Of a stretch of DNA of 64,000 nt, positions 1,180 through 13,998 are shown in pieces (position 1 is the first letter of the stretch; every line of letters starts with the position of its first letter). Position numbers and translations under genes: made by a program. The DNA is from a virus, in IMG/VR virus record IMGVR_UViG_3300025466_000015. One strand, 5' to 3'. The notes under the pieces were generated by a model, which ran no database searches, was not told the DNA's origin, and saw nothing but the letters and a program-made list of their open reading frames with translations.

Positions 1180-1896
1180 ATGAATAAAGTGACTGTGATT
1201 ATACCAACAACTGGTGCACCAACTCTTAGAAGTGCTATAGAGTCTGTATTGAATCAAACCGAATCGACCACTTGTTATGTCGTTGTTGATGGTGAAAAGT
1301 TCAGGGGAGCTTCTAAGGTAATATTGGATGATTACCTTGGTAATCCTAATCTAAAGGTATCATACTTACCAATTAATGTTGGTGCTAATGGTTTTTACGG
1401 ACACCGTATATATGCTTCTTTTACCCACCTGATTGACACAGAATTTGTAGGATATTTGGATCAGGATTGTTGGTTGGAAAATAACCACATAGAAAGTTGT
1501 TTAAAAACAATGACTTCTACGAATGCTGATTGGGTTTATTCACTCAGAAAAATATGTGGTAAACTTGGCGACTACATTTGTAATGACGATTGTGAGTCTC
1601 TTGGTAAGTGGCAAACATATCATGGCATCAATCATATAGATACTAATTCATATTGCCTTAGAACAAAAGTTGCAATACAATTAGCTTCAGTATGGCATGG
1701 CGGTTGGGGCCAAGATAGAGTATTCTATTCAGCGTTACAACAATATTTCAAAAATTATGAATGTACTGGTAAATATACGGTTAATTATCGTGTTGATGGT
1801 AATGCAGGTTCTGTTAATGCCGATTTTTTCAAAAATGGTAATGAAGTGATGAATAAAAAATATAATGGAGTTTTCCCATGGCGAGCCGAGTCTTAA
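1180..1896 (+). CDS. Glycosyltransferase family 2
   Basis: N-terminal VTVIIPT...AIESVLNQT...VVVDG and a DxD motif (YLDQD). Confidence 0.85.
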   Translation: MNKVTVIIPTTGAPTLRSAIESVLNQTESTTCYVVVDGEKFRGASKVILDDYLGNPNLKVSYLPINVGANGFYGHRIYASFTHLIDTEFVGYLDQDCWLENNHIESCLKTMTSTNADWVYSLRKICGKLGDYICNDDCESLGKWQTYHGINHIDTNSYCLRTKVAIQLASVWHGGWGQDRVFYSALQQYFKNYECTGKYTVNYRVDGNAGSVNADFFKNGNEVMNKKYNGVFPWRAES

Positions 1897-2690
1897 TAGT
1901 TGGTGACAATAGTTTTATTGGCCGTAATTTCTACAATAGTATTTCTCTAGAGCATGATGATGTTCTTGCTCACATTGTACCTTATAGTCACTTACATCAT
2001 GTTGATTTAAAAAGATATGATGTGGTTATCAATTGTGCTATTGCGTATGAATATAAAACTCAAACCTATAATGAAGCCTATGACTTAGATTGGCTTGTTG
2101 GAGTGAAAGCTGCAGAATCTGGTTGTCATTATATTATGATGAGTACCAGAAAAGTTTATGGAAATTCACCTATAATAGCACGTTATAGCGAAAGGCATCC
2201 ATTAAATCCTTTTGATCGATATAGTGAAAACAAATCTCTCACAGAAAAATTCTTAACCGAAAATGTAGAAAATCTAACGATACTGAGGGGTTCAAACATT
2301 TATGGTTTTGAATTAGGTAGAAGTTCTTTTGTAGGTTATTGTATGAACCAACTAAAAGCTACTGGTACTATCAAATATGATATGGAAAAAAGTATCAAAC
2401 GAGACTTTATAAGTATAGAACGAGTTTGTGAATTGTTGAAAAAAATCTGTGAGATAAGACCAAAAGGAATATACAACTTGAGTTCTGATTTTGGATTGGA
2501 AATATCCAAGATAGCAAGAGGTCTTATTCTAGGTTATGGCCAAGGCAATTTCATTCAAGTAGATTCGCTTGCCAAGGAACAATTTATATTAGATAATACA
2601 AAGTTAGAAGATGCTTGTAATATGAAGATTAAAATTTCAAATTACAGTAATGATTTTTATAACATGGGAATAAAATTATGGATGATTTAG
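1878..2690 (+). CDS. NAD-dependent epimerase/dehydratase (extended SDR)
   Basis: VLIVGDNSFIG Rossmann-like start, STRKVYG, YxxxK (YSENK). Confidence 0.8.
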   Translation: MASRVLIVGDNSFIGRNFYNSISLEHDDVLAHIVPYSHLHHVDLKRYDVVINCAIAYEYKTQTYNEAYDLDWLVGVKAAESGCHYIMMSTRKVYGNSPIIARYSERHPLNPFDRYSENKSLTEKFLTENVENLTILRGSNIYGFELGRSSFVGYCMNQLKATGTIKYDMEKSIKRDFISIERVCELLKKICEIRPKGIYNLSSDFGLEISKIARGLILGYGQGNFIQVDSLAKEQFILDNTKLEDACNMKIKISNYSNDFYNMGIKLWMI

Positions 2691-3526
2691 TGATATCGGC
2701 TATATCGATATATGATTTTGAAAAGATTAAACATTGGGTTCATTCTTTAGAAAGAACGGGATATTCTGGTCGCAAAGGTATGATTGTGTTCAATGTCTTG
2801 GACGATACAATCGAAAAACTAAAAGATCACGGCTTTGAAATTTTTGTAGTGAGTCAACAAAGAAACAAAGAAAACAATGGATTTCATTTTGCTGATGGAT
2901 TTGGTTATCAAGTACCAACACTCAGACATTATTTCTATTGGAAATTCCTAAAAGACCTAAAAGACATTCGGTACGTCATCTCTACCGATGTTGATATTGT
3001 GTTTCAGTCTGATCCTTCTGAATGGCTGACCAAAAATATGGGTGATAAAAAACTTAATTATGGCGGTGAAGGTTTGAAATACAAAGACGAACCTTGGGGT
3101 TACGATAATATTGGTCAATGTTTTGGACCAGATATTCGAGATTACATGGCCGAAACACAAATCTATAACGCCGGATCAATGGCAGGTGAATTTAAAACAT
3201 TCATTGATTACTCTCTGACATTAGCATTAATGATTGAAGGCATCAGAAATCCTGTACCTGACCAAGCTGCTGTTAATGTGTTATTGTCAACTGAGCCGTA
3301 TAAGTCAATTACCAATTTCAATAGTGGTGATACTAATTGGGCTTGTCAATGTGGTACGATGGTTGATCCAAGTAAAATGAATCAATTTAAACCTAATCTA
3401 TTGTGTAAAGAACCAACATTTGAAGATGGATTTGTTTATAACAGTTTTGGTGAAAAATATGTGATGGTTCACCAATACAATAGGGTTCCAAATTGGAAAA
3501 AAATACTTGAGGAAAAATATGAGTGA
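2678..3526 (+). CDS. Putative GT-A fold glycosyltransferase
   Basis: TDVDIVFQ (DxD), NAG, DQAAVN and HQY motifs; cluster context. Confidence 0.65.
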   Translation: MDDLVISAISIYDFEKIKHWVHSLERTGYSGRKGMIVFNVLDDTIEKLKDHGFEIFVVSQQRNKENNGFHFADGFGYQVPTLRHYFYWKFLKDLKDIRYVISTDVDIVFQSDPSEWLTKNMGDKKLNYGGEGLKYKDEPWGYDNIGQCFGPDIRDYMAETQIYNAGSMAGEFKTFIDYSLTLALMIEGIRNPVPDQAAVNVLLSTEPYKSITNFNSGDTNWACQCGTMVDPSKMNQFKPNLLCKEPTFEDGFVYNSFGEKYVMVHQYNRVPNWKKILEEKYE

Positions 3527-4358
3527 TATTACAATTGTAACAGCATTCTTTGATATTGGCCGTGGAAGATTGCCGAAAACCAAATATGGCCGAGTTCTTC
3601 CTTTTTATGAACATAGGTCTGTTGATACCTATTTTGAATTCTTTACAAATTTAGCCAAAATCAAAAATGACATGGTGATTTATACTTCACCTGATTTTGC
3701 TGAAAAAATTTATGATATTAGAAATAAATTTGGATTAGCTGATAAGACAACTGTTGTCGTTATGGATTCTTATATGCCAAAAGGCCTTGAGATTTATAAA
3801 GAAAGAACAGAAAAGGTCATGCAATCCGAAGATTACATTTCTAAAATTCAAAGACCTGAATTGATTGAATATTGGCACGCTGATTATGTATTGGTTAATA
3901 TGTTTAAATCACTTTATGTTAATCATGCAATTGAAAGTGGCCACGTTAAGACTGATGTGACAGCTTGGATAGATTTTGGTTATTGTCGTGATGGTAACAG
4001 GTTGCCAGAAAATAATGTTTGGTCATATGATTTTAATCCAGATAAAATACACTTCTTCAATATCAAGCCTATTGAAAAAGATAGACCTATTGTAGAAATT
4101 ATATCTACGGGTGATGTTTATATTATGGGATGCCATATGGTTGCTGGTACCAAAATGTGGCCAAGAGTTAGAGAATTAATATTTGGCAACTTTGAAGTTT
4201 TGTTAAATAACAATCTATGTGATGATGACCAAACGTTATTGTTGATGTCTTACTTGGTCACACCAGAAGAATTTGAATTGAGGTTCGTAGATCCATCCGA
4301 TTGGTTTATTATATTTAAGGATTATAATGATAGCAGTAATATCTCCACGAATTCATAA
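3519..4358 (+). CDS. HtrL/YibB-family putative glycosyltransferase
   Basis: MSDITIVTAFFDIGRG, AWIDFG, DDDQTLL. Confidence 0.75.
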   Translation: MSDITIVTAFFDIGRGRLPKTKYGRVLPFYEHRSVDTYFEFFTNLAKIKNDMVIYTSPDFAEKIYDIRNKFGLADKTTVVVMDSYMPKGLEIYKERTEKVMQSEDYISKIQRPELIEYWHADYVLVNMFKSLYVNHAIESGHVKTDVTAWIDFGYCRDGNRLPENNVWSYDFNPDKIHFFNIKPIEKDRPIVEIISTGDVYIMGCHMVAGTKMWPRVRELIFGNFEVLLNNNLCDDDQTLLLMSYLVTPEEFELRFVDPSDWFIIFKDYNDSSNISTNS

Positions 4359-5076
4359 TCTAGGCGATTTTGTTCATTGTTTGCCAGTTCTTTCTGGTTT
4401 ATATAAATTTACAAATCATAAAATGTGGTTTATTATTTGTAACAGACTAAAACGATTCAAAGGAATTAAAGATTTGTTACTAGCTCAAGAAATGTTTGAG
4501 AAAGTTACATTTGTTGATGAAGAATCAGTTAATTGGGAAAGATGTATATTAATTGATGACACCGGTAGTGATATAGGCTATGGATCACGACCAATTGTTC
4601 AACAAAGATATTATAATTTCATCAAAAATAATTATAGAATTAATTTTGAATTTGATGATGATTTTGAATTACAAGTACCAAAACTTGATATTGATTACCG
4701 TGAAAAACAATTAATTGTTGGAGATCGGTGGTCACCCAAGGATGCTCCAGATGTGGATGACCGTAGGAATTTTAATGTCATTGAATCTTCTGGTATAGTT
4801 AAAGATTATAATACCTTGTATCTTGACTACAAGAACGACTTGGTGTATAATTGTTCTTTAATCAAGTATAATCCCAATCCTTTCGTCACCACAATTACAG
4901 GAATTGGTATTGTAGCCGATTTGATGAAGAAAGATACTTATGTCCTATGGGACGAAGATATGAGGACATGGCAAGGAGATCCTGTTGACCATGTATTCAG
5001 ACTTCATCATTTTGAAAACCGAAATACCAAACTTGTCTACATCAAAGATTTCATATATGAAAATCAAACTGTTTAG
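4327..5076 (+). CDS. GT9 (heptosyltransferase)-like protein
   Basis: N-terminal HNLGDFVHCLPVL resembles the GT9 xxGD motif; TGIGIVA near the C-terminus. Confidence 0.5.
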   Translation: MIAVISPRIHNLGDFVHCLPVLSGLYKFTNHKMWFIICNRLKRFKGIKDLLLAQEMFEKVTFVDEESVNWERCILIDDTGSDIGYGSRPIVQQRYYNFIKNNYRINFEFDDDFELQVPKLDIDYREKQLIVGDRWSPKDAPDVDDRRNFNVIESSGIVKDYNTLYLDYKNDLVYNCSLIKYNPNPFVTTITGIGIVADLMKKDTYVLWDEDMRTWQGDPVDHVFRLHHFENRNTKLVYIKDFIYENQTV

Positions 5077-5710
5077 CCATGCCGTATCATTAGATGGTAC
5101 AACACAAATCACAAAAACTCAAACAGATTTGCTTTTAAGTACTGGTTTAGCCGAAGCTGCTGAAATCAATATGATGTTACATTTTAAAGAAGAACCATTC
5201 TTATGGATGAAAGACAAGTTGCCTAACGCAAACTATAAAGTTTTTGATTCTTCTTATGGTCAATGGTTTGAAGGTACTACAATGCTTCATATACAAGAAT
5301 TGGTACACTCCACCGATGAAGAATTTTATGTTTGTTACATTCATCATAAAGGATTAACAAGTAATCTGACCGATTGGCGGACATATATGGAATATTGGAA
5401 CATTATTCGATGGAAAGATTGTGTTGCCAAATTAGATGAAGGTTATGATACTTGTGGTGCTTCGTTTTTAAATGATCCACCACATCCGTTCTATGCTGGA
5501 AATTTCTGGTGGGCCAGAGCTTCTTATCTTAGAAGGTGTAAAAGACTAAAAACTCCAAAAGAAAACAAGTTACAACCACAATTTTCTGGTCAACCACACC
5601 ATCGATTTGACTATGAATGTTGGCATGGTAGTGGTAACCCTAAAGCATACGATTTACATCCTGGTCCAAAAAATCGTTGGTATTGGCGTCCGGAAATGTA
5701 CCAAAAGTGA
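5057..5710 (+). CDS. Hypothetical protein, glycosyltransferase-like
   Basis: YIHHKG and FYAGNFWWA motifs; last gene of the glycosylation cluster. Confidence 0.45.
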   Translation: MKIKLFSHAVSLDGTTQITKTQTDLLLSTGLAEAAEINMMLHFKEEPFLWMKDKLPNANYKVFDSSYGQWFEGTTMLHIQELVHSTDEEFYVCYIHHKGLTSNLTDWRTYMEYWNIIRWKDCVAKLDEGYDTCGASFLNDPPHPFYAGNFWWARASYLRRCKRLKTPKENKLQPQFSGQPHHRFDYECWHGSGNPKAYDLHPGPKNRWYWRPEMYQK

Positions 5711-5763: not shown

Positions 5764-5771
5764 TATAAATA
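5764..5771 (+). promoter_or_regulatory. T4-type late promoter
   Basis: Exact TATAAATA, intergenic, about 45 nt upstream of the ATG at 5816. Confidence 0.8.
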
Positions 5772-5815
5772 AACCTACGGACAACCATAGTGTGTTGTAT
5801 TTCTAGGGAAAATCA

Positions 5816-7027
5816 ATGAAAACTTTTATATCGTTTCTGACTGAAGAAGCTGCTGATGAAGGCGGCCAGCTCAAACACATTCACCATGCTGAAGATAGAC
5901 CTTTAATGCACGGTCATGCTGGTTTTGAACATGCTTATGGTGCTTTACAACAAGCACACGAACATATTAAGGCTGGCCACAAAAGTAGTAATTTAACAAT
6001 GAAATATGATGGTTCTCCATCAATTGTCTTTGGTCACCATCCACATACTGGTAAATTCTTTGTTGCTTCCAAATCTGCTTTCAATAAGAATCCAAAGATT
6101 AACTACTCTGAAAAAGATATTCAGAAGAATCATGGCCATGCTCCAGGCTTAGTAAAAACTCTTAAACATGCACTCAAACACCTACCAAAAGTAACACCTA
6201 AAACTGGTGTTTATCAAGGTGATGTGATGCATCATGCAGAAACTAAGACATTAAAAGAAGAACATTTGTTTGAAGCTGCAAAAAATAAAGTATCTTTTAC
6301 ACCAAATACCATCACCTATACTGCACACGGTGATGAAGCTAAGAAAATTAACAAATCTAAGATTGGTGTCGTAGTTCACCAAAAATATAGTGATGACATG
6401 AAACATGCTTCACCTCATGTTGACCACCATAACTTTAAAGAACATCCAGATGTCCATATTCATGGTGCTGAACATGATACAAGTAAGGTTCAACACAGTC
6501 CGGAGAATGAACATGAGTTTCATAAACACATGGCTGCAGCTAAAGAGATACACGACACACATGGCCACAAAATGTATGATGCCGTTCATCATGCTCATGG
6601 TGGAGAATCCGGTCATCTATCCACTTACATTAATCATACAGTAAGACACGATCAGGTTCCAAGTGTTAAAGGATTCCAAGCACACCTTTATAGCCAACAT
6701 GAAAAAATGGCATCCAAAGTAAAATCGGATAAATCTAAGAATGAAAAACGTACTGAAGGTGAACACCAGATTAAACATGTGGAAAAAAATAAATCTGCAT
6801 ATGGCCATTTGTTCTCTATGCATCACCATTTACACCAAGCCAAGAATTCTTTGGTGAAATCATTGGAAACGCATGAGGGTAAATATGAACACCATATTGA
6901 AGGTAAGAAATCTAAACCAGAAGGTTTTGTGGTAAACCATAAACCAGAAGGCGGTAAAGAAGAACCAACAAAATTGGTAAATAGAGCTGAATTCGCTAAG
7001 GCCAATCTTTTAAAAGTTAGAAAATGA
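5816..7027 (+). CDS. His-rich ligase-fold nucleotidyltransferase-like protein (DUF6267-like) with putative capsid-targeting leader
   Basis: Ligase-like motifs KYDG, YQGD, EGFVV and KLV; leader MKTFISFLTE; about 55 His in 403 aa. Confidence 0.65.
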   Translation: MKTFISFLTEEAADEGGQLKHIHHAEDRPLMHGHAGFEHAYGALQQAHEHIKAGHKSSNLTMKYDGSPSIVFGHHPHTGKFFVASKSAFNKNPKINYSEKDIQKNHGHAPGLVKTLKHALKHLPKVTPKTGVYQGDVMHHAETKTLKEEHLFEAAKNKVSFTPNTITYTAHGDEAKKINKSKIGVVVHQKYSDDMKHASPHVDHHNFKEHPDVHIHGAEHDTSKVQHSPENEHEFHKHMAAAKEIHDTHGHKMYDAVHHAHGGESGHLSTYINHTVRHDQVPSVKGFQAHLYSQHEKMASKVKSDKSKNEKRTEGEHQIKHVEKNKSAYGHLFSMHHHLHQAKNSLVKSLETHEGKYEHHIEGKKSKPEGFVVNHKPEGGKEEPTKLVNRAEFAKANLLKVRK

Positions 7028-9162
7028 AGTCGTTTTTAGATATAGTTCAAGAAGCCAAAAGTGATGAGGTGCATCATGTGATGACCTTTGGCCGGATGAA
7101 TCCGCCTACAACTGGCCACTTGAAGTTGATTGATAAAGTTAAAGATGTGGCTAAAAAGAATAATGCTGGTCACACAGTTGTCACATCACATTCACAAGAT
7201 GCAAAGAAGAATCCATTATCGGCAGCTCAGAAGATTAAACACCTAAAAAGATATTCTCCAGGTACTCACTTTGAAGCTTCCAACAAAGAACATCCAACAT
7301 TCTTACATCACGCAGCCAAAATCCACAAGAAAGGCGTAACTCACCTTCACATGGTGGTTGGTTCTGACCGTGTTAAAGAAATGAGAGAGAAGTTGCACAG
7401 ATATAATGGTACACATGAAGGTGCCTTGTATAACTTCAAAAAGATTACAGTTCACTCAGCTGGTGAAAGAGATCCTGATGCTGAAGGTGATACTGGTATG
7501 TCTGGTACCAAGATGAGAGAACATGCCAAGAATAAAGATATGAAATCTTTTAGACAAGGCGTTCCACATCATGTTTCTGATGAACATGCAAAAGAATTGA
7601 TGCATGATACTCGTAAAGGTATGGGTTTACATGAAGATATTTACCGTGGCGTATTCAAGGCCATCTTTGTAACTGGTGGACCTGGTTCTGGTAAAGATAT
7701 TGTTATTCGTGAAGCTATTGCTGAGGCCAGAGCTGTTGAATTAAACTCCGTACAAGCATTTGAATACTTGGCCGATAAACAAAAGTTATCCGAAAGAACT
7801 AATGATTTCCGTAGAGAAGCCATTAGAACAAGGTCACCATTGATTATTAATGGACCTGCTGATGATGCTCAACGTATTGTTTATGTTAAAGAAGAATTAG
7901 AAGATTTAGGTTATGAAACCATGATGGTTTTTGTTAACACAACTGATGAGGTGAGTAAAGAGAGAAACGAAAAACTTAAAAGGACAATTGGTGAATCTGT
8001 ACGTCACGATAAATGGATTCAGTCACAAAACCTTAAAGAATCATACTCTCAGAACTTTACCACTTTTATGAACTTTGATAATGATGGTTCCTATGAACAG
8101 ATAGAGGAAGACATTACTGACACATATCAAAGCATAAATCGCTTTTTTGACAAATCTCCATATAATGATGTTGCATTTTCATGGTTAGAAAATCGTGGAA
8201 AGTTAAATACTGGTGTTAACTCTAATCTTTTTAAGGAAGAAAAAAATGTTTCAAAAAATTCTAAATCTATTCAAACTAAAACCGCTGCCAAATACAACCC
8301 AGCCTATCGAGCAGCCGGCCCAAGTGACATCCCCCCAGATAACGACAAGTCCGGTGGCGGAAACCCGGACGATGTTAAATTCAACGCCGTCAAACGTACA
8401 GGTACCTATACCTTCAGAACTTACTCCGAGTCCCGTGACTCCGGCTCCTTCAATTCAGGTAACGACAACAGAAGTTACGGCACAGCCCCAACCCTCCAAG
8501 CGGGGAAGAAAGCCAAAGAATCAAGGTTCCAACAAGACAACGACAAAACGAAAAGGTTAAAAAGAGGTGATACTTCTTTAAAAGCCACTAGAGTTGGTAG
8601 GCCTGACGGTGTTGGGTCTACAATTAATACTAGAGGTTATGATGGTTTAACTGGTGGTGCAGGCCTTGGTGACGCTACATACAGAGAAGAAACGAAACCA
8701 AAATTAATCAAAAAAGATAGACTAGGTCCAGAATATTCTACAAGTAACAGACCAACTGGTGATACCGCAGGTCCAAGACCAAGTAATAACTTTGTTGGTG
8801 AAAAACGTAAGTTTAAGAGTACTGTCATTAAAGAGTTTAATGGATTCCAAAATGATGTGGAGTCTGGTGTTGGTGGTACGTTAGGTGGTTCTGGTAACAT
8901 GGAGAAAATGGACTCCTATAAAGACCAAATGCGTAACATCGGTACTGAAGTCAAAGTTAAGAAGAAGAAAAAATTAAAAGAGAATCATGTAAGAGAACTT
9001 GAAAAAGGTTTACAACAATTGAACAGTCACGATTATGACACAATTCATAATCTAATGATGAAAGTATCTAAAGACCATGGCGTAACTGGTAAACAACTTC
9101 ATAATGATTTCAAATCTGAACATGGTAAAACACCTGATAACTGGATTAAGGAAAAGAAATGA
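7024..9162 (+). CDS. HxGH nucleotidyltransferase fused to a P-loop kinase-like domain and a low-complexity tail
   Basis: FGRMNPPTTGH, VVGSDR, MSGTKMR, then AIFVTGGPGSGKD; leader MKSFLDIVQE. Confidence 0.8.
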   Translation: MKSFLDIVQEAKSDEVHHVMTFGRMNPPTTGHLKLIDKVKDVAKKNNAGHTVVTSHSQDAKKNPLSAAQKIKHLKRYSPGTHFEASNKEHPTFLHHAAKIHKKGVTHLHMVVGSDRVKEMREKLHRYNGTHEGALYNFKKITVHSAGERDPDAEGDTGMSGTKMREHAKNKDMKSFRQGVPHHVSDEHAKELMHDTRKGMGLHEDIYRGVFKAIFVTGGPGSGKDIVIREAIAEARAVELNSVQAFEYLADKQKLSERTNDFRREAIRTRSPLIINGPADDAQRIVYVKEELEDLGYETMMVFVNTTDEVSKERNEKLKRTIGESVRHDKWIQSQNLKESYSQNFTTFMNFDNDGSYEQIEEDITDTYQSINRFFDKSPYNDVAFSWLENRGKLNTGVNSNLFKEEKNVSKNSKSIQTKTAAKYNPAYRAAGPSDIPPDNDKSGGGNPDDVKFNAVKRTGTYTFRTYSESRDSGSFNSGNDNRSYGTAPTLQAGKKAKESRFQQDNDKTKRLKRGDTSLKATRVGRPDGVGSTINTRGYDGLTGGAGLGDATYREETKPKLIKKDRLGPEYSTSNRPTGDTAGPRPSNNFVGEKRKFKSTVIKEFNGFQNDVESGVGGTLGGSGNMEKMDSYKDQMRNIGTEVKVKKKKKLKENHVRELEKGLQQLNSHDYDTIHNLMMKVSKDHGVTGKQLHNDFKSEHGKTPDNWIKEKK
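8246..8560 (+). CDS. Candidate overprinted +1-frame gene (104 aa, Pro/Thr-rich, basic tail)
   Basis: AAGGA RBS before the ATG; host-frame codons shift to C-ending over this interval; MFQKILNLFK...KRGRKPK. Confidence 0.5.
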   Translation: MFQKILNLFKLKPLPNTTQPIEQPAQVTSPQITTSPVAETRTMLNSTPSNVQVPIPSELTPSPVTPAPSIQVTTTEVTAQPQPSKRGRKPKNQGSNKTTTKRKG

Positions 9163-9869
9163 TATCATTCAAAGAATTCATTACTGAAAAGTGTTGGACT
9201 GGATATAAAAGAGTTCCAGGTACAAAAGCATATTCTCCCGGTTCTTGTGAAAAAGAAGAAGTTGAAAAACCAACAGGCAAACTAAAAGATGCTTGTTGGA
9301 CGGGTTATACGGCTGTTGGAACAAAAAAGAAAGATGGTAGAACAGTTCCTAATTGTGTACCAGAAGAAGTTGAAATGGAAGCTTACCATGATCCTTGGAA
9401 AGACAAATATTTTGGTCCAGGAGAAGTAGTCAAACAAAAATATAGAGTTAAGACAGATGACAAAACATATAATGTTAGAGCTGATACCGAAAAACATGCA
9501 CACGAATTGGTAACTAAACATGCTCCTGACTCCACAATTATTTCTATTCAACATAAAGGTTCCGCAAGATGGTCGGAACAAGTTGAAATAGACGAAACTG
9601 CAGCTTGGCAAAGAAAAGCTGGAAAAGATCCAAAAGGTGGCTTAAATAGAAAAGGTATTGCTTCTTATCGTAGAGAGCATCCAGGTTCTAAACTAAGTAT
9701 GGCTGTAACAACAAAGCCATCTAAGTTAAAAAAGGGTAGTAAAGCGGCTAATCGTAGAAAATCATTTTGTGCTAGAATGTCTGGCATGAAAAGAAGACTA
9801 ACATCAGCTAAGACTGCAAGAGATCCAAATTCTAGGATCAATAAGTCATTGAGAAAATGGAATTGCTAA
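9159..9869 (+). CDS. Basic modular protein (DUF6321-like C-terminus), putative internal head protein
   Basis: Leader MISFKEFITE; CWTGY twice; GGLNRKG...RRKSFCARM...SLRKWNC. Confidence 0.65.
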   Translation: MISFKEFITEKCWTGYKRVPGTKAYSPGSCEKEEVEKPTGKLKDACWTGYTAVGTKKKDGRTVPNCVPEEVEMEAYHDPWKDKYFGPGEVVKQKYRVKTDDKTYNVRADTEKHAHELVTKHAPDSTIISIQHKGSARWSEQVEIDETAAWQRKAGKDPKGGLNRKGIASYRREHPGSKLSMAVTTKPSKLKKGSKAANRRKSFCARMSGMKRRLTSAKTARDPNSRINKSLRKWNC

Positions 9870-9888: not shown

Positions 9889-11202
9889 ATGTTCACGAAA
9901 ACACAAGTCAGCCAATCAGTTATTGATTCAGTTACCAAAATCCTTCAAGAGGATGATTGTGTAACGCCTATGCAATCCAAAAAGATTGCTGATAAAGAAG
10001 TTGATAAACATGAGAAAAGTATGCACAAAGGTAAGAAGCCTACCTTTGAAGAAAAGAAAATGAAAGAAGTAGATGAAGACAAGTTGAAAGAGACTGGTTT
10101 TCATATGGCTGCTCATGCTGCTAAGAAAGCAGGCCAACCACACTTTACATTCCAAGGTAAAAAATATCCAACCACAGCAAAATCTACAGCTGAATCTATG
10201 GACGAAGCTTCCACATTTGACTGGAAAGCAAACAAGGATGAAAAAGATCCTAAGTTTACTACCAAGAAACCTGGCGAGAGAACTGGTCACGATTCTAAGA
10301 AAACAGAAAAAGGTGTTCAATACACTAAGAAGCCACTTAGAACTGATGGCCAAGAATTCAAAAAAGAAGAAACCGAAATGGACTTCAAAGAAAGACTTCT
10401 GGAAAAAAACTGGATTGCTGGTGCTATTAAGAAACCTGGTGCTGAAACTGCTGCCGCTAAAAAAGCTGGTATGAGCGTTCAAGCATATGCACATAAACAC
10501 GCTCACGATACAGGTAAAGCTGGTAAACGTGCTCGCCTAGCAATTACTCTTAAAGGTCTACATAAAGAAGCTAAAGACCATGAGTATTCAGACCCACACA
10601 TGGCCGTTAATCAGTTGAGAACAATCATGACCAATACCGAAGAATTGTTAGGTATGTTGGGTGATACTACTGATTTGCCAGAATGGGTAGAATCTAAAAT
10701 CACTTTGGCTGAAGACTACATTATGACAGTTGCTAATTATATGCGTTCTGAATTACATGAAGACGTTGAATTGGATGAAGGCATGATGGACACCGTTAAA
10801 AAAGTTGGTGGTAAAGTATTGAAAACATTGGGACATGGTTCTGATACTGATATGCGTAAAGACCTACAACGTAAAATGGGTGTACCACAAACTGGTGAGA
10901 AACCAAAGAAAGAAGCAGTAGACCGTGCTCAAGCAACAACAGACACTTTAGCTGGTCGTGTTAAAGGCGGTAAAGATAATGAACACAGTAGCATCAAGGT
11001 TAAATTGAAAGCTGAAGCTACTGAAAAACATGATGACAAGCCACCATTTGATGGTCCTTACACAAAAGTTAAAGGTGATGTCAAAGACAAATCTGGTGCT
11101 GTTCACACACCAATGAGTCGTGCCAAACATTTGGCTAGACAAGCAATGAAAAAAGTTAAAAATGAAATGATGATTGGTAAAGCTGGCGGTACATCTGAAT
11201 GA
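9889..11202 (+). CDS. Lys/Glu-rich modular protein, putative internal head polyprotein
   Basis: GGAG RBS; short modules separated by (L/I/M/V)xE sites. Confidence 0.55.
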   Translation: MFTKTQVSQSVIDSVTKILQEDDCVTPMQSKKIADKEVDKHEKSMHKGKKPTFEEKKMKEVDEDKLKETGFHMAAHAAKKAGQPHFTFQGKKYPTTAKSTAESMDEASTFDWKANKDEKDPKFTTKKPGERTGHDSKKTEKGVQYTKKPLRTDGQEFKKEETEMDFKERLLEKNWIAGAIKKPGAETAAAKKAGMSVQAYAHKHAHDTGKAGKRARLAITLKGLHKEAKDHEYSDPHMAVNQLRTIMTNTEELLGMLGDTTDLPEWVESKITLAEDYIMTVANYMRSELHEDVELDEGMMDTVKKVGGKVLKTLGHGSDTDMRKDLQRKMGVPQTGEKPKKEAVDRAQATTDTLAGRVKGGKDNEHSSIKVKLKAEATEKHDDKPPFDGPYTKVKGDVKDKSGAVHTPMSRAKHLARQAMKKVKNEMMIGKAGGTSE

Positions 11203-12593
11203 GTAAATCCGATACATTAAAATCGGTTGTAAAAAAGGTGGCAGATAAGTCCACCTTTGGTACAAACCCAAAAGACCCATGGTCTACCAAATCTGGAATA
11301 TCTGAAGATAGATATTTGGACACTTACCTCAGCACTAGAGGTATCAATCCAAAGTTTGCTACTAAGGATGTTAAGATAGCACACTCCAAATCAAATCAAT
11401 TTTTGAATTGGAAAAGGTCTCACCTAAACATGCGTGAAGATTTGACTACTGGTAGAGAAACGACCGATGTGAGATCCAAAGTTGCACAATCACCAACTTT
11501 GAAAAGAAAAAACGAATTACAAAAGTCTGTTAAACATTATATTGTAAAAAGTCCAACAGGCAGTATGCACAAAGAAGACTTTACCGATGAAGAAGTTGAT
11601 ATATTAATTAACGAAGTTTTGGGTAAAGACGCCAAGGCTTATGATTGGATTCACCACTTTGTTCATTCAGATAATCCTAAGTTTGATGGTAAATCTAAAA
11701 AGAAACGTCAAAAGATGGCTCTTGCTGCCTACTATGCCAAACAGAATGAATCATTGGGTGATGATTTTCTAAAGATGATGAAAGACAAAGGTATCAAACA
11801 CCGTGTTCACGGTACACCTGACCAAGAGAAACAAAGAACTGCTGATAAGTTGGCTGCCAATAAAGCCAAAGCAGATGCTGCACCAAAATCAACTAAAAAG
11901 GATGACCAAGGTGGATTTGGTACACATCGTGGTTATGGACAAGGCCGTTACATGGGTGATTCGGTAGAGTTAGATAGCGATGCACTCATTAATGAATTGA
12001 GTAAAGAGAAATTGGGTGGTTTCATAAAAAAATCAAAAGAAACATTTAAAGATTTGCCTACTGAAAAGAAAGGCAATAGATTAAGAAATGTAATTAAAGC
12101 TGCAATCAAAAAAGATGCAAAGAATGAAGAAGTTGATTTGGATGAAGCCAAAATGAGTGCTTCTATGAAACTGAGCAATGCTTTAGGTCGTGAAAAGGCC
12201 AAATCTACTGCCAGTATGCAACGTGCTAAAGAAATGATGGACAAGATTAAACAGGATGTCAAAGCTAAGAGTGAAAAACCTCCTATCAAAGAAGACAGAA
12301 TCAAATCTGCTAGAATAATCAAGTCCATATATAAAAAAAAGAATATGAAAGAAGAAATGTACGACCATGAGAAAGATGACAAAGGTAGTTCATCGGTCTA
12401 TGGTAAAGCACCTAAAGTAGGTAAATCCAAAGAAGAAGGTGAAAGTACTAATAAGGCAGCTGCCGTATTAAAGGGTGGTACAACATTAACTGGTCAAAGT
12501 AGAGATACAATTGAAATTGATCCAATGATGAGAACCCGTCCAACAAATGGTGCTTCGCCTGAAGATGCCAGAAGTAAAAAGAGTATCGGATAA
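11199..12593 (+). CDS. Lys-rich modular protein, putative internal head polyprotein
   Basis: Modules follow LINE, LDE and IKE sites; DWIHHFVHSDNPKF module. Confidence 0.55.
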   Translation: MSKSDTLKSVVKKVADKSTFGTNPKDPWSTKSGISEDRYLDTYLSTRGINPKFATKDVKIAHSKSNQFLNWKRSHLNMREDLTTGRETTDVRSKVAQSPTLKRKNELQKSVKHYIVKSPTGSMHKEDFTDEEVDILINEVLGKDAKAYDWIHHFVHSDNPKFDGKSKKKRQKMALAAYYAKQNESLGDDFLKMMKDKGIKHRVHGTPDQEKQRTADKLAANKAKADAAPKSTKKDDQGGFGTHRGYGQGRYMGDSVELDSDALINELSKEKLGGFIKKSKETFKDLPTEKKGNRLRNVIKAAIKKDAKNEEVDLDEAKMSASMKLSNALGREKAKSTASMQRAKEMMDKIKQDVKAKSEKPPIKEDRIKSARIIKSIYKKKNMKEEMYDHEKDDKGSSSVYGKAPKVGKSKEEGESTNKAAAVLKGGTTLTGQSRDTIEIDPMMRTRPTNGASPEDARSKKSIG

Positions 12594-12629: not shown

Positions 12630-13364
12630 ATGTCCTCATGGGGTAATAACGACAACGCAGCCAACGCACCATATTGGGCTGTTAATTCAACACTGGTGTC
12701 CGTAGATAGACAACCTGTAGGTACAAGACCTACAGCTGCTAACGTTGCTCTATTATATGGTAACACAACACCTGATGTTTATACAACAGGCAAAACTATT
12801 GGTTTGTTTTTGGCAGATGCTGTTGAAGAACAAGTTCAAGAGAATATTGGTTACAAACCTGCACATTCTGGTTGGAATCTGAAAACTACAGGTTCTGGTG
12901 GTCGTGCTGGTCGTATTCAATGGGAAACTTTAGTTGCTTTAGCTAACGTCACAACAGACAACAATGGTTCAGATGATGCAGTATTACCGGATGCTATCAT
13001 CACCATTTCTCAACCTATTGCTCGCAATCCTGTTCCAGTTAGTGCAGCTTCTGCTAATACAGTAACATTCTCTGTTGCTGGTACAACTGCTGTTCCAGAT
13101 TCTGCTGTATTGACATATCAATGGCAAGTTAATGCTGGTGGAATGTCTTGGGTTGACATTAATCCAGGTACCAATATTTCTACTGGCCAACCTGGCGGTA
13201 CGAATAAGACTGGCGCTAATACTGCTACATTGATCCTAGATCCAACAGATGTAACAGCAAACAACTATGTGTTCCGTGCTGTGGTGACTGCAACTAATCC
13301 AGGAATTTCAGGTTCCTCTGCTGTTGCTTACTCATCTAACGCTCAGATTATTATTGTTGCTTAA
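12630..13364 (+). CDS. Virion structural protein with C-terminal Ig-like domain
   Basis: LTYQWQ...W.DI...TATL...YVFRAVV pattern; ATAAATA late-promoter-like sites at 12590-12607; AAGGAG RBS. Confidence 0.65.
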   Translation: MSSWGNNDNAANAPYWAVNSTLVSVDRQPVGTRPTAANVALLYGNTTPDVYTTGKTIGLFLADAVEEQVQENIGYKPAHSGWNLKTTGSGGRAGRIQWETLVALANVTTDNNGSDDAVLPDAIITISQPIARNPVPVSAASANTVTFSVAGTTAVPDSAVLTYQWQVNAGGMSWVDINPGTNISTGQPGGTNKTGANTATLILDPTDVTANNYVFRAVVTATNPGISGSSAVAYSSNAQIIIVA

Positions 13365-13393: not shown

Positions 13394-13780
13394 ATGTTTG
13401 ATAATTTGAATGAAGATAATTTCATGATGTATGCTATGAAGTGCTATACGTCACCTCATTGTATTATGTCTGAATTTGAAAGTGATATTAAGAGAACAAA
13501 ATATCTTAAAAGACTTTTTAGAAGATATAAGATAACAAAATCTCTTAAAGAACGTTTAATTCTGAATCACATTATTTTATTGAACAATGTTTTTGGTAAA
13601 GATGCTTGTGCCAGAATATTGTTCTATAAAATAGACGAAAGAGATTATGACATATTGAAGACATTTTTAATGTACCTCAATATTATGCCTGATGGTGTTT
13701 ATGGTATTAATGGTAAGAATATCCCAGTAGCTGATATTCCAATAGATACAAATGTCGCAGAGATATTAAGCAAAATATGA
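13394..13780 (+). CDS. Conserved T4-like phage hypothetical protein
   Basis: YLKRLFRRY...ERLILNHIILLNNVFG motif. Confidence 0.65.
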   Translation: MFDNLNEDNFMMYAMKCYTSPHCIMSEFESDIKRTKYLKRLFRRYKITKSLKERLILNHIILLNNVFGKDACARILFYKIDERDYDILKTFLMYLNIMPDGVYGINGKNIPVADIPIDTNVAEILSKI

Positions 13781-13998
13781 AATCATTCAAACAGTTTAAT
13801 GAAGATGGCGGCGCAGGCGGTGGTGCTGGTGGCGGTGCCATGGGTGGTTCTGCTGGTCCAACAAATACTGTCGGTGGCGGTGCAATTGCCGGTACTGGTG
13901 GTAAAGGTGGTGAACCTGGTGTTTACCTTAATAAAAAAAGAAAAAATGATCCAAGATTACCAATGGGTATAGGTCGTAGAAAATCACCTAAGATTTAA
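13777..13998 (+). CDS. Gly-rich small protein with capsid-targeting-like leader
   Basis: MKSFKQFNE leader, PTNTVGGGAIAG, basic tail. Confidence 0.6.
   Translation: MKSFKQFNEDGGAGGGAGGGAMGGSAGPTNTVGGGAIAGTGGKGGEPGVYLNKKRKNDPRLPMGIGRRKSPKI

Follow-up and report, generated by a model that had tools for sequence, protein, structure and literature searches.

Background

The closest described precedent for the locus considered here is provided by the internal proteins of bacteriophage T4, in which a leader of ten residues directs a protein into the head: residues 1-10 of IPIII are sufficient for loading, positions 4 and 7 of the leader serve targeting and positions 8 and 10 serve cleavage, an Asp at position 10 permits targeting and prevents cleavage, and foreign proteins which bear the tag are packaged and delivered by the phage (PMC9026906). 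Tagged, protease-processed and injected cargo of the T4 style is thus already known, and for a nucleotidyltransferase of cyanophages both virion association and a proposed delivery have been published. The present work concerns a pair of overlapping genes in a stretch of 64,000 nucleotides from an uncultured T4-like phage of water (IMG/VR record IMGVR_UViG_3300025466_000015; the whole stretch is referred to below as the window). Gene 1 encodes a protein of the family DUF6267, which is modelled here with a ligase fold, and gene 2 joins a HIGH-motif nucleotidyltransferase to a P-loop domain resembling kinases. An earlier note on this DNA, made from the letters alone, had described the open reading frames (ORFs), their coupling, the leaders and the enzymatic motifs, all of which were found in place. 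Because both proteins start with a ten-residue loading tag of the T4 type, it is probable, by analogy with T4, that these leader-bearing enzymes travel inside the capsid and are injected along with the DNA.

Leaders of the capsid-targeting type and late promoter

Translation of the T4 record gives IPII and IPIII the common start MKTYQEFIAE. The leaders of genes 1 and 2 (Table 1), and that of the following gene 3 (MISFKEFITE), have Phe at position 4, Phe or Ile at position 7, an aliphatic residue at position 8 and Glu at position 10 (in gene 2, position 7 is Ile and position 8 is Val). The strict form of the leader pattern is found in 3 of the 215 ORFs of the window, and these are precisely genes 1, 2 and 3. 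In the AlphaFold models, segments of low confidence, which are presumably exposed, lie directly after each leader (in gene 1, the predicted local distance difference test score, pLDDT, is low at residues 13-16).

The conservation of the leader in homologues, which had been set beforehand as a test, was evaluated using 103 DUF6267 representatives that are mutually no more than 50% identical, and the leader proved to be present in 54 of them, while 17 begin directly at the conserved core and many others have a degenerate form. In natural fusions of DUF6267 with the transferase, one leader stands ahead of both enzyme domains. Since it is kept in about half of the representatives, is cleanly absent from the 17, and is present as a single copy in fusions, the leader behaves as a module that is conserved and separable. 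In the full-text literature searched, a capsid-targeting sequence has never been tied to these cyanophage proteins. Each of the four related phages that were tested, like T4 itself, encodes a member of the gp21-type protease family (PF03420); no gp21-type prohead protease was identified in the window, but no PF03420 scan was aimed at it.

Elsewhere in the window, the ORF at 13777-13998 (73 residues, 30% Gly) has a leader-like N-terminus whose tenth residue is Asp in place of Glu.

Upstream of gene 1 lies an exact match to the T4-type late promoter, TATAAATA (Table 1). The ATAAATA core of this promoter occurs at 5 sites in the 64 kb compared to an expected count of 28, a depletion of more than fivefold, and all five are on the plus strand; because the core is so strongly avoided in the window, the match before gene 1 is meaningful. 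Three of the five sites flank the block, the first in front of gene 1 and two others (12590 and 12601) ahead of a head-protein-like gene at 12630. The promoter and the coupled genes behind it bear out the late transcription unit that had been proposed, and it is rather likely, again by analogy with T4, that the genes at 5816-9869 form the translationally coupled opening of an operon that is expressed late and encodes cargo for the interior of the head.

Homologues in virions

Virion mass spectrometry, which the earlier note had named as a check, has detected homologues of the transferase in the virions of four cyanophages, as reported in three isolate papers. S-SZBM1_140 was detected in virions (PMC9146016), as were S-SCSM1 ORF91, within a run of virion proteins that extends over ORF89-93 (PMC9602691), and S-CREM2 ORF154-156 (PMC10665884); a virion protein of the non-T4 cyanomyovirus S-CBWM1 resembling nicotinamide mononucleotide adenylyltransferase (NMNAT) enters here as it is cited in PMC10665884. 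In a comparison of 16 cyanomyophage genomes published in 2010, every genome has entries for DUF6267 and for its transferase partner, and the latter (T4-GC190) is flagged with proteomic data (PMC3037559). BLAST identified proteins of S-SZBM1, S-SCSM1 and S-CREM1 as homologous to gene 2, and similar leaders are found on the transferases of these three phages and on the annotated cytidyltransferase of S-RIM8. In S-SCSM1, a holin-like gene, primase and nrdA come after ORF89-93, and the order in the window is identical. The authors of these studies have proposed that the enzyme enters with the virion.

DUF6267 differs in marine cyanophages, where it lacks the leader (S-SZBM1_141, S-SCSM1_257, S-RIM8 gp183 and S-WAM2) and does not appear among the virion proteins of the proteomes consulted. 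That tagged proteins are detected and untagged proteins are not fits a role of the tag as a loading signal, in what are few cases. The DUF6267 gene of S-SCSM1 is located far from the transferase gene, among non-structural genes, and a sigma-70-like -10 element precedes it. Read most simply, an early supply of the pair would be required, which lineages would secure either by injection or by early expression.

Predicted ligase fold of gene 1

Gene 1 belongs to the Pfam family DUF6267 (PF19782, E value 1e-91), which comprises about 1,760 clusters in a library of 1.8 billion proteins and is matched by 468 phage records, of which almost all are from cyanomyoviruses; the literature search turned up no paper on the family. 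The Pfam scan of gene 1 returned DUF6267 alone and no ligase family, and the ESM Atlas look-up returned unnamed viral clusters only. The AlphaFold model, computed from a 78-sequence alignment, has a pLDDT of 92 and a predicted template modelling score (pTM) of 0.90, and three independent structure searches with it were all topped by ligases, at Z values (for the search that reports them) which are moderate. In the Foldseek search against the PDB, DNA and RNA ligases fill the top 20 places, weakly (best E value 0.04), and in a library of viral models the first matches beyond the family itself carry RNA-ligase annotations. An exhaustive structure aligner, run against 48,161 chains, aligned the model to five RNA-ligase families with Z 8.0-8.8 and a root-mean-square deviation of about 4 Å over 176-200 residues; the scores were 8.6-8.8 for the Naegleria RNA ligase, 8.4-8.6 for the ligase domain of fungal Trl1, 8.1 for trypanosome REL1, 8.0 for T4 Rnl2, 7.4-7.6 for T4 Rnl1 and 6.0-6.6 for DNA ligases.

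Among the 78 homologues, conservation reaches at least 90% for the residues K63, D65, G66, Q134-G135-D136, E369, G370 and K386, which follow one another in the order of the ligase motifs and lie on beta strands; as variants, motif III has Asp where ligases have Glu, and motif V reads K-x-x-x-R in place of K-x-K. A ligase fold with KYDG, YQGD, EGFVV and KLV as its motifs had been suggested for this protein, and the model and the structure searches agree with that suggestion. They support the assignment of gene 1 as a predicted covalent nucleotidyltransferase of RNA-ligase fold, with K63, D136, E369 and K386 as its candidate catalytic residues. Because sequence methods give nothing significant, the protein is termed ligase-like here and is placed outside the named ligase families.

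In the model, motifs IIIa and IV are separated by a helical insert (residues 229-350, about 120 in all), part of which is missing from shorter DUF6267 proteins with a length of about 300 residues (S-SCSM1 221412-222266, and S-CREM1). The N-terminal region has a conserved H-x-x-H-x-E-D motif, and no OB domain follows motif V in the model. In five distant DUF6267 clusters (P0142, P0212, P0219, P0225 and P0226) the C-terminal half is a separate gene, with its Met at the exposed loop of residues 141-157 and its start just before the F-T-P-N-T-I-T-Y strand, which suggests that a break of the chain at this loop is tolerated.

Domains of gene 2

The N-terminal domain of gene 2 passes the cut-offs of two broad families (PF01467, 25.8 bits against a cut-off of 21; TIGR00125, 31.1 bits against 27.7), has a Rossmann-like fold and keeps the motifs T-x-G-H and S-G-T-x-x-R nearly invariant. 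Its structure matches range from Z 12 to 13.8, with NadM at 13.8, the archaeal NMNAT of M. jannaschii at 13.2 and PPAT at 12.7, and PPAT, NadD and FAD synthetase are nearly equal to NadM. The best sequence-profile match among PDB structures is a TmcAL-family protein (E value 1.4e-5), followed by PPAT. The more specific identity with NMNAT or NadR that had been considered is not supported by the curated models, which score 13 to 17 bits against cut-offs of 112 to 341 (TIGR01526, 16.9 bits against 341; TIGR00482, 14.2 against 112; NF002243, 13 against 127). The evidence supports a predicted HIGH-motif nucleotidyltransferase of an NMNAT/PPAT-like kind.

The L-H-E site in the linker to the next domain is conserved in 120 close homologues and is part of an exposed stretch of low confidence (pLDDT below 50 at residues 205-207); in Pelagibacter phage HTVC008M, a separate kinase gene begins five residues before the equivalent position. 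The best structure matches of the kinase domain (Z 11.8-12.0) are a fungal kinase with bound guanosine diphosphate (9drz), the putative kinase 2rhm, guanylate kinase and the polynucleotide kinase of C. thermocellum. Comparison with the Trl1 kinase domain and bacterial polynucleotide kinase gives Z 9.8-12, Foldseek places adenylate and thymidylate kinases on top, and the Pfam family AAA_33 scores 17.9 bits, below its cut-off of 27. A Walker A motif ending in G-K-D, Asn276 at the position equivalent to Walker B, and several Arg residues are invariant in 120 close relatives. The earlier note had cautioned that the kinase may be degenerate in its Walker-B-like strand (LIINGP), where Asn276 stands in place of the usual Asp; with its Walker A Asp and Asn276, the domain looks, from its sequence, like a conserved variant.

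When the whole chain of gene 2 is searched with Foldseek, bifunctional ATP sulfurylase/APS kinase (E value about 1e-6) and NadR (about 6e-6) are matched, and this, together with the domain folds, supports the proposed architecture, similar to that of NadR, of an HxGH domain and a P-loop, joined here through GLHE. The poorly conserved basic tail (residues 400-652) has no family match, and the small C-terminal domain (residues 653-712) is missing from most close homologues, where it forms a gap in the family alignment.

Histidine content differs strongly along this part of the window (5816-7640), at 13.6% in gene 1, 10.7% in the transferase domain and 0.5% in the kinase domain. A catalytic meaning of this richness was considered and rejected: because the content ranges from 1.4% to 14% across DUF6267 (and is about 1% in the marine isolates HTVC008M and S-SZBM1), it is regarded as a lineage-specific surface trait.

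Pairing of the ligase-like and transferase domains

Of 150 DUF6267 cluster representatives, 38 carry the transferase in the same chain, usually with DUF6267 first (one fusion is reversed) and mostly with linkers of about 10-35 residues; S-PM2 encodes a fusion of this kind, and the two genes are adjacent in most cultured relatives. This frequent fusion and adjacency imply a shared function, and constitute strong evidence that the ligase-like and transferase domains are one functional unit. The kinase is found in none of the 38 fusion representatives and in no cyanophage record of the phage collection; the cultured phages that have it are HTVC008M, the Methylophilales phage Melnitz and two jumbo phages, and the neighbourhoods of its homologues in Atu_ph07 and Melnitz gave no functional clue. 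The ligase-plus-kinase logic put forward in the earlier note was therefore rejected as a conserved pair, the conserved unit being the ligase-like protein and the transferase. Pfam scans of 20 long fusions found, besides the transferase, one polymerase-beta-type domain (P0160) and one LysM domain. A scan of 185,579 prokaryote genomes yielded four loci, and because at least two of these (132 kb and 189 kb) seem to be contigs of phages that were binned together with cells, they offer no cellular context from which function could be deduced.

Proposed mechanism and alternative explanations

In the mechanism proposed here, which is modelled on T4 IPI-III and Alt, the leader would dock each protein onto the scaffolding core of the prohead, and a gp21-type prohead protease would cut the leader off after Glu10; the same protease may also cut the gene 2 protein at its L-H-E linker and the gene 1 protein at its exposed loop. 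Once matured, the proteins would be ejected together with the DNA, whereupon the kinase would phosphorylate 5' ends and the ligase-like enzyme would seal them. The healing and sealing of broken RNA ends, or possibly DNA ends, at the start of infection is a tentative assignment of function, which may well prove incorrect. The features that point to RNA are weak ones: RNA ligases score above DNA ligases, the top matches of the kinase include polynucleotide and tRNA-related kinases, and the TmcAL family matched by the transferase modifies tRNA.

A broader proposal, which must be considered doubtful, is that DUF6267 and the HIGH-type transferase constitute an unrecognised two-enzyme system that modifies nucleic-acid ends or nucleotides, is core to Kyanoviridae-type phages, and is active within minutes of the start of infection, whether injected or made early according to lineage. 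If this were the case, the system might reseal host-cleaved tRNA or phage RNA, or might attach an adenylate-derived group to the ends of RNA or DNA, and would represent a new class of delivered counter-defence enzymes.

A number of observations weigh against the reading of the locus as injected enzymes that repair nucleic-acid ends. With respect to delivery, the authors of the proteome papers themselves cautioned that abundant proteins may be carried over into virion preparations. The virion mass spectrometry data concern transferase homologues of other phages, at the level of detection. The leaderless S-SZBM1_141 and S-SCSM1_257 are not among the virion proteins reported in the published proteomes, T4-GC71 (which corresponds to DUF6267 by its coordinates) has no proteomic flag in PMC3037559, and delivery is not essential to DUF6267, because the S-SCSM1 copy sits among non-structural genes. 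With respect to the ligase fold, the match is moderate (Z below 9, and the Foldseek E value given above), and Asp replaces Glu in motif III. Searches of gene 1 against solved structures, with the single sequence and with the 78-sequence profile, gave no relevant match, and hhalign comparison of the DUF6267 profile with T4 Rnl1 and Rnl2 paired motif IV alone, at a probability below 1%. With respect to repair, the activity of the kinase is uncertain because its Walker A motif ends in Asp and the Walker B equivalent is Asn, the role envisaged for the transferase (to make or handle the adenylate donor) is a guess, and no enzyme that removes 2',3'-phosphates was found in the block.

The alternative that survives best, although it is unlikely, is a supply of nicotinamide adenine dinucleotide (NAD+) in the manner of NadR, in which an injected nicotinamide mononucleotide adenylyltransferase and nicotinamide-riboside kinase raise or restore the level of NAD+, possibly to counter NAD-depleting defences, and the ligase-like partner uses NAD+ as its adenylate donor. 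NadM and an archaeal NMNAT are indeed the top structure matches of the transferase, NadR is matched over the whole protein, and the cyanophage papers label the homologues NMNAT and suggest exactly this role (PMC10665884, PMC9602691), but the curated NMNAT and NadR models fall far below their cut-offs, PPAT, NadD and FAD synthetase score almost equally, the best sequence-profile match is of the TmcAL family, and the kinase on which the scheme depends is missing from the fusion representatives and from the cyanophage records. The case for pre-loading is further weakened by the timing of the defences in question: those that deplete NAD usually fire late.

A packaged kit for the repair of nicks and gaps in DNA, in which phage DNA damaged by sunlight would be repaired on entry by a ligase-like enzyme that is already adenylated, together with a 5'-kinase, in a way comparable to the repair enzymes of some large viruses, is quite unlikely: DNA ligases are matched as well, and the relative P0160 adds its polymerase-beta-type domain, but RNA ligases score about 2 Z units above DNA ligases, gene 1 is modelled without the OB domain after motif V, and no polymerase or nuclease was found in the block. 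Finally, it is improbable that the proteins are not cargo at all and act late in the cytoplasm, with an N-terminus conserved for regulation or for assistance in assembly as in T4 gp63/Rnl1 (T4 RNA ligase 1 has a late morphogenetic role though it is no virion protein, and leaderless DUF6267 genes are common and undetected in virions), since the leader is near-identical to the experimentally defined T4 signal, recurs as a module on three consecutive genes which share no detected family, and is borne by transferase homologues found in purified virions by several independent studies.

Organization of the locus

The features of the locus are collected in Table 1. ATGA overlaps join genes 1 and 2, genes 2 and 3, and the two Lys-rich genes downstream.

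Table 1. Features of the locus, in positions of the window (residue numbers refer to the encoded protein)
Feature	Position	Strand	Description
T4-type late promoter	5764-5771	+	TATAAATA, exact match in a gap of 105 nucleotides, 45 nucleotides upstream of gene 1
ATAAATA core sites	5765, 12590, 12601, 51298, 54432	+	Compact map of candidate late promoters
Gene 1	5816-7027	+	403 residues, DUF6267 protein
Gene 1 leader, residues 1-10	5816-5845	+	MKTFISFLTE, ends in L-x-E
Motif I, residues 63-66	6002-6013	+	KYDG (K63-x-D65-G66), candidate adenylated lysine K63
Motif III-like, residues 133-136	6212-6223	+	YQGD (Q134-G135-D136), on a beta strand
Exposed loop, residues 141-157	6236-6286	+	L-x-E sites at 146 and 151; pLDDT below 50 at 148-154
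Motif IV, residues 369-373, and motif V, residues 386-390	6920-6985	+	EGFVV (E369-G370) and KLVNR (K386...R390), on adjacent strands
Gene 2	7024-9162	+	712 residues: leader, HIGH nucleotidyltransferase, P-loop kinase, disordered basic tail, small C-terminal domain
Gene 2 leader, residues 1-10	7024-7053	+	MKSFLDIVQE
HIGH-motif nucleotidyltransferase, residues 15-204	7066-7635	+	TTGH 29-32, GSDR 113-116, SGT 160-162
L-H-E linker site, residues 202-204	7627-7635	+	Between transferase and kinase
P-loop domain like nucleoside-monophosphate and polynucleotide kinases, residues 208-379	7645-8160	+	P-loop 218-225 ending in GKD; LIINGP 273-278
Low-complexity basic tail, residues 400-652	8221-8979	+	Rich in Gly, Lys, Asn, Ser and Thr; poorly conserved, indel-rich
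Small C-terminal domain, residues 653-712	8980-9159	+	phrog_10346, E value 4e-10
Gene 3	9159-9869	+	Third leader-bearing protein, Lys-rich, C-terminal DUF6321
Two Lys-rich genes	9889-11202 and 11199-12593	+	Downstream in the same run

Gene 3 contains two copies of a Cys-Trp-Thr-Gly-Tyr...Cys motif that is common to S-SZBM1_139 and S-CREM1_219, and S-SZBM1_139, part of which is shared with gene 3, was detected in virions (PMC9146016). The PHROG family 10346 (525 positions) spans both the C-terminal domain of gene 2 (8980-9159) and the DUF6321 domain of gene 3 (9600-9866), and because it contains both domains, these small modules are taken to be shuffled between the cargo proteins; in other phages the C-terminal domain of gene 2 is joined to DUF6321.

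The window as a whole has a Kyanoviridae-type gene content, which includes nrdA/nrdB, cobS, primase, tryptophan-halogenase-like genes and a large peptidase, and its nearest cultured relatives are cyanomyoviruses, HTVC008M and Melnitz. Upstream of the block, at 1180-5710, is a series of overlapping genes, one of which belongs to the HtrL/YibB family (PF09612, E value 4e-52), and which may be a sugar-modification cluster.

Comparison with known systems

The predicted ligase fold of DUF6267, the link between DUF6267 and the transferase through fusion, and the kinase-bearing variant are new, as is, so far as the literature searched shows, the presence of the tag on these proteins. Few viruses on Earth are as abundant as T4-like cyanophages and pelagiphages, and the transferase has carried the wrong label "cytidyltransferase". 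A loading tag of the T4 type gives a mechanistic explanation for its repeated detection in purified virions, and the ligase fold and the fusions allow what was a vague "auxiliary metabolic gene" to be posed as a concrete question of enzymology. If the enzymes do repair or modify nucleic acids on entry, they lengthen the small list of enzymes that phages are known to inject.

The locus resembles the T4 system of IPI-III and Alt in its leader, which is almost identical to that of IPII and IPIII, in its late promoter, and in the gp21-type protease of its relatives; like Alt, a packaged ADP-ribosyltransferase, its cargo would be enzymatic, and like the T4 internal proteins it has basic, Lys-rich companions. 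It differs in that the putative cargo has unrelated folds, is much larger than IPI-III and includes multidomain enzymes. With the "cytidylyltransferase/NMNAT-like" virion proteins of cyanomyoviruses (T4-GC190, S-SCSM1 ORF91, S-SZBM1_140 and S-CREM2 ORF154) it shares a homologous transferase, at about 40% identity, the same type of leader, and the same synteny between helicase/MazG and primase/nrdA genes, whereas the protein of the window adds the P-loop kinase, a disordered tail of 250 residues and a C-terminal domain, and the neighbouring DUF6267 gene is leader-bearing as well.

In its predicted enzymology, gene 1 is like the RNA ligases (Naegleria Rnl5, Trl1, REL1, and T4 Rnl2 and Rnl1) in its adenylyltransferase fold, in the way motifs I, III, IV and V succeed one another and are placed on strands, in the nearly invariant Lys, Asp and Gly of motif I, and in having no OB domain in view; it is unlike them in lacking significant sequence similarity, in its variant motifs III and V, and in its helical insert and N-terminal H-x-x-H-x-E-D. 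Gene 2 resembles NadR and ATP sulfurylase/APS kinase in placing a HIGH-type transferase before a P-loop kinase in one chain, and departs from NadR in the failure of the curated models, in a P-loop which is of the adenylate-kinase type but ends in Asp, and in the restriction of the fusion to a minority of relatives. Finally, the locus is like T4 Pnkp with Rnl1, and like fungal Trl1, in that a P-loop kinase and an enzyme of ligase fold are encoded together, while it has no phosphatase or cyclic phosphodiesterase module, its kinase is fused to a HIGH transferase instead of a ligase, and, by analogy with the T4 internal proteins, its products would be expressed late and packaged rather than expressed early.

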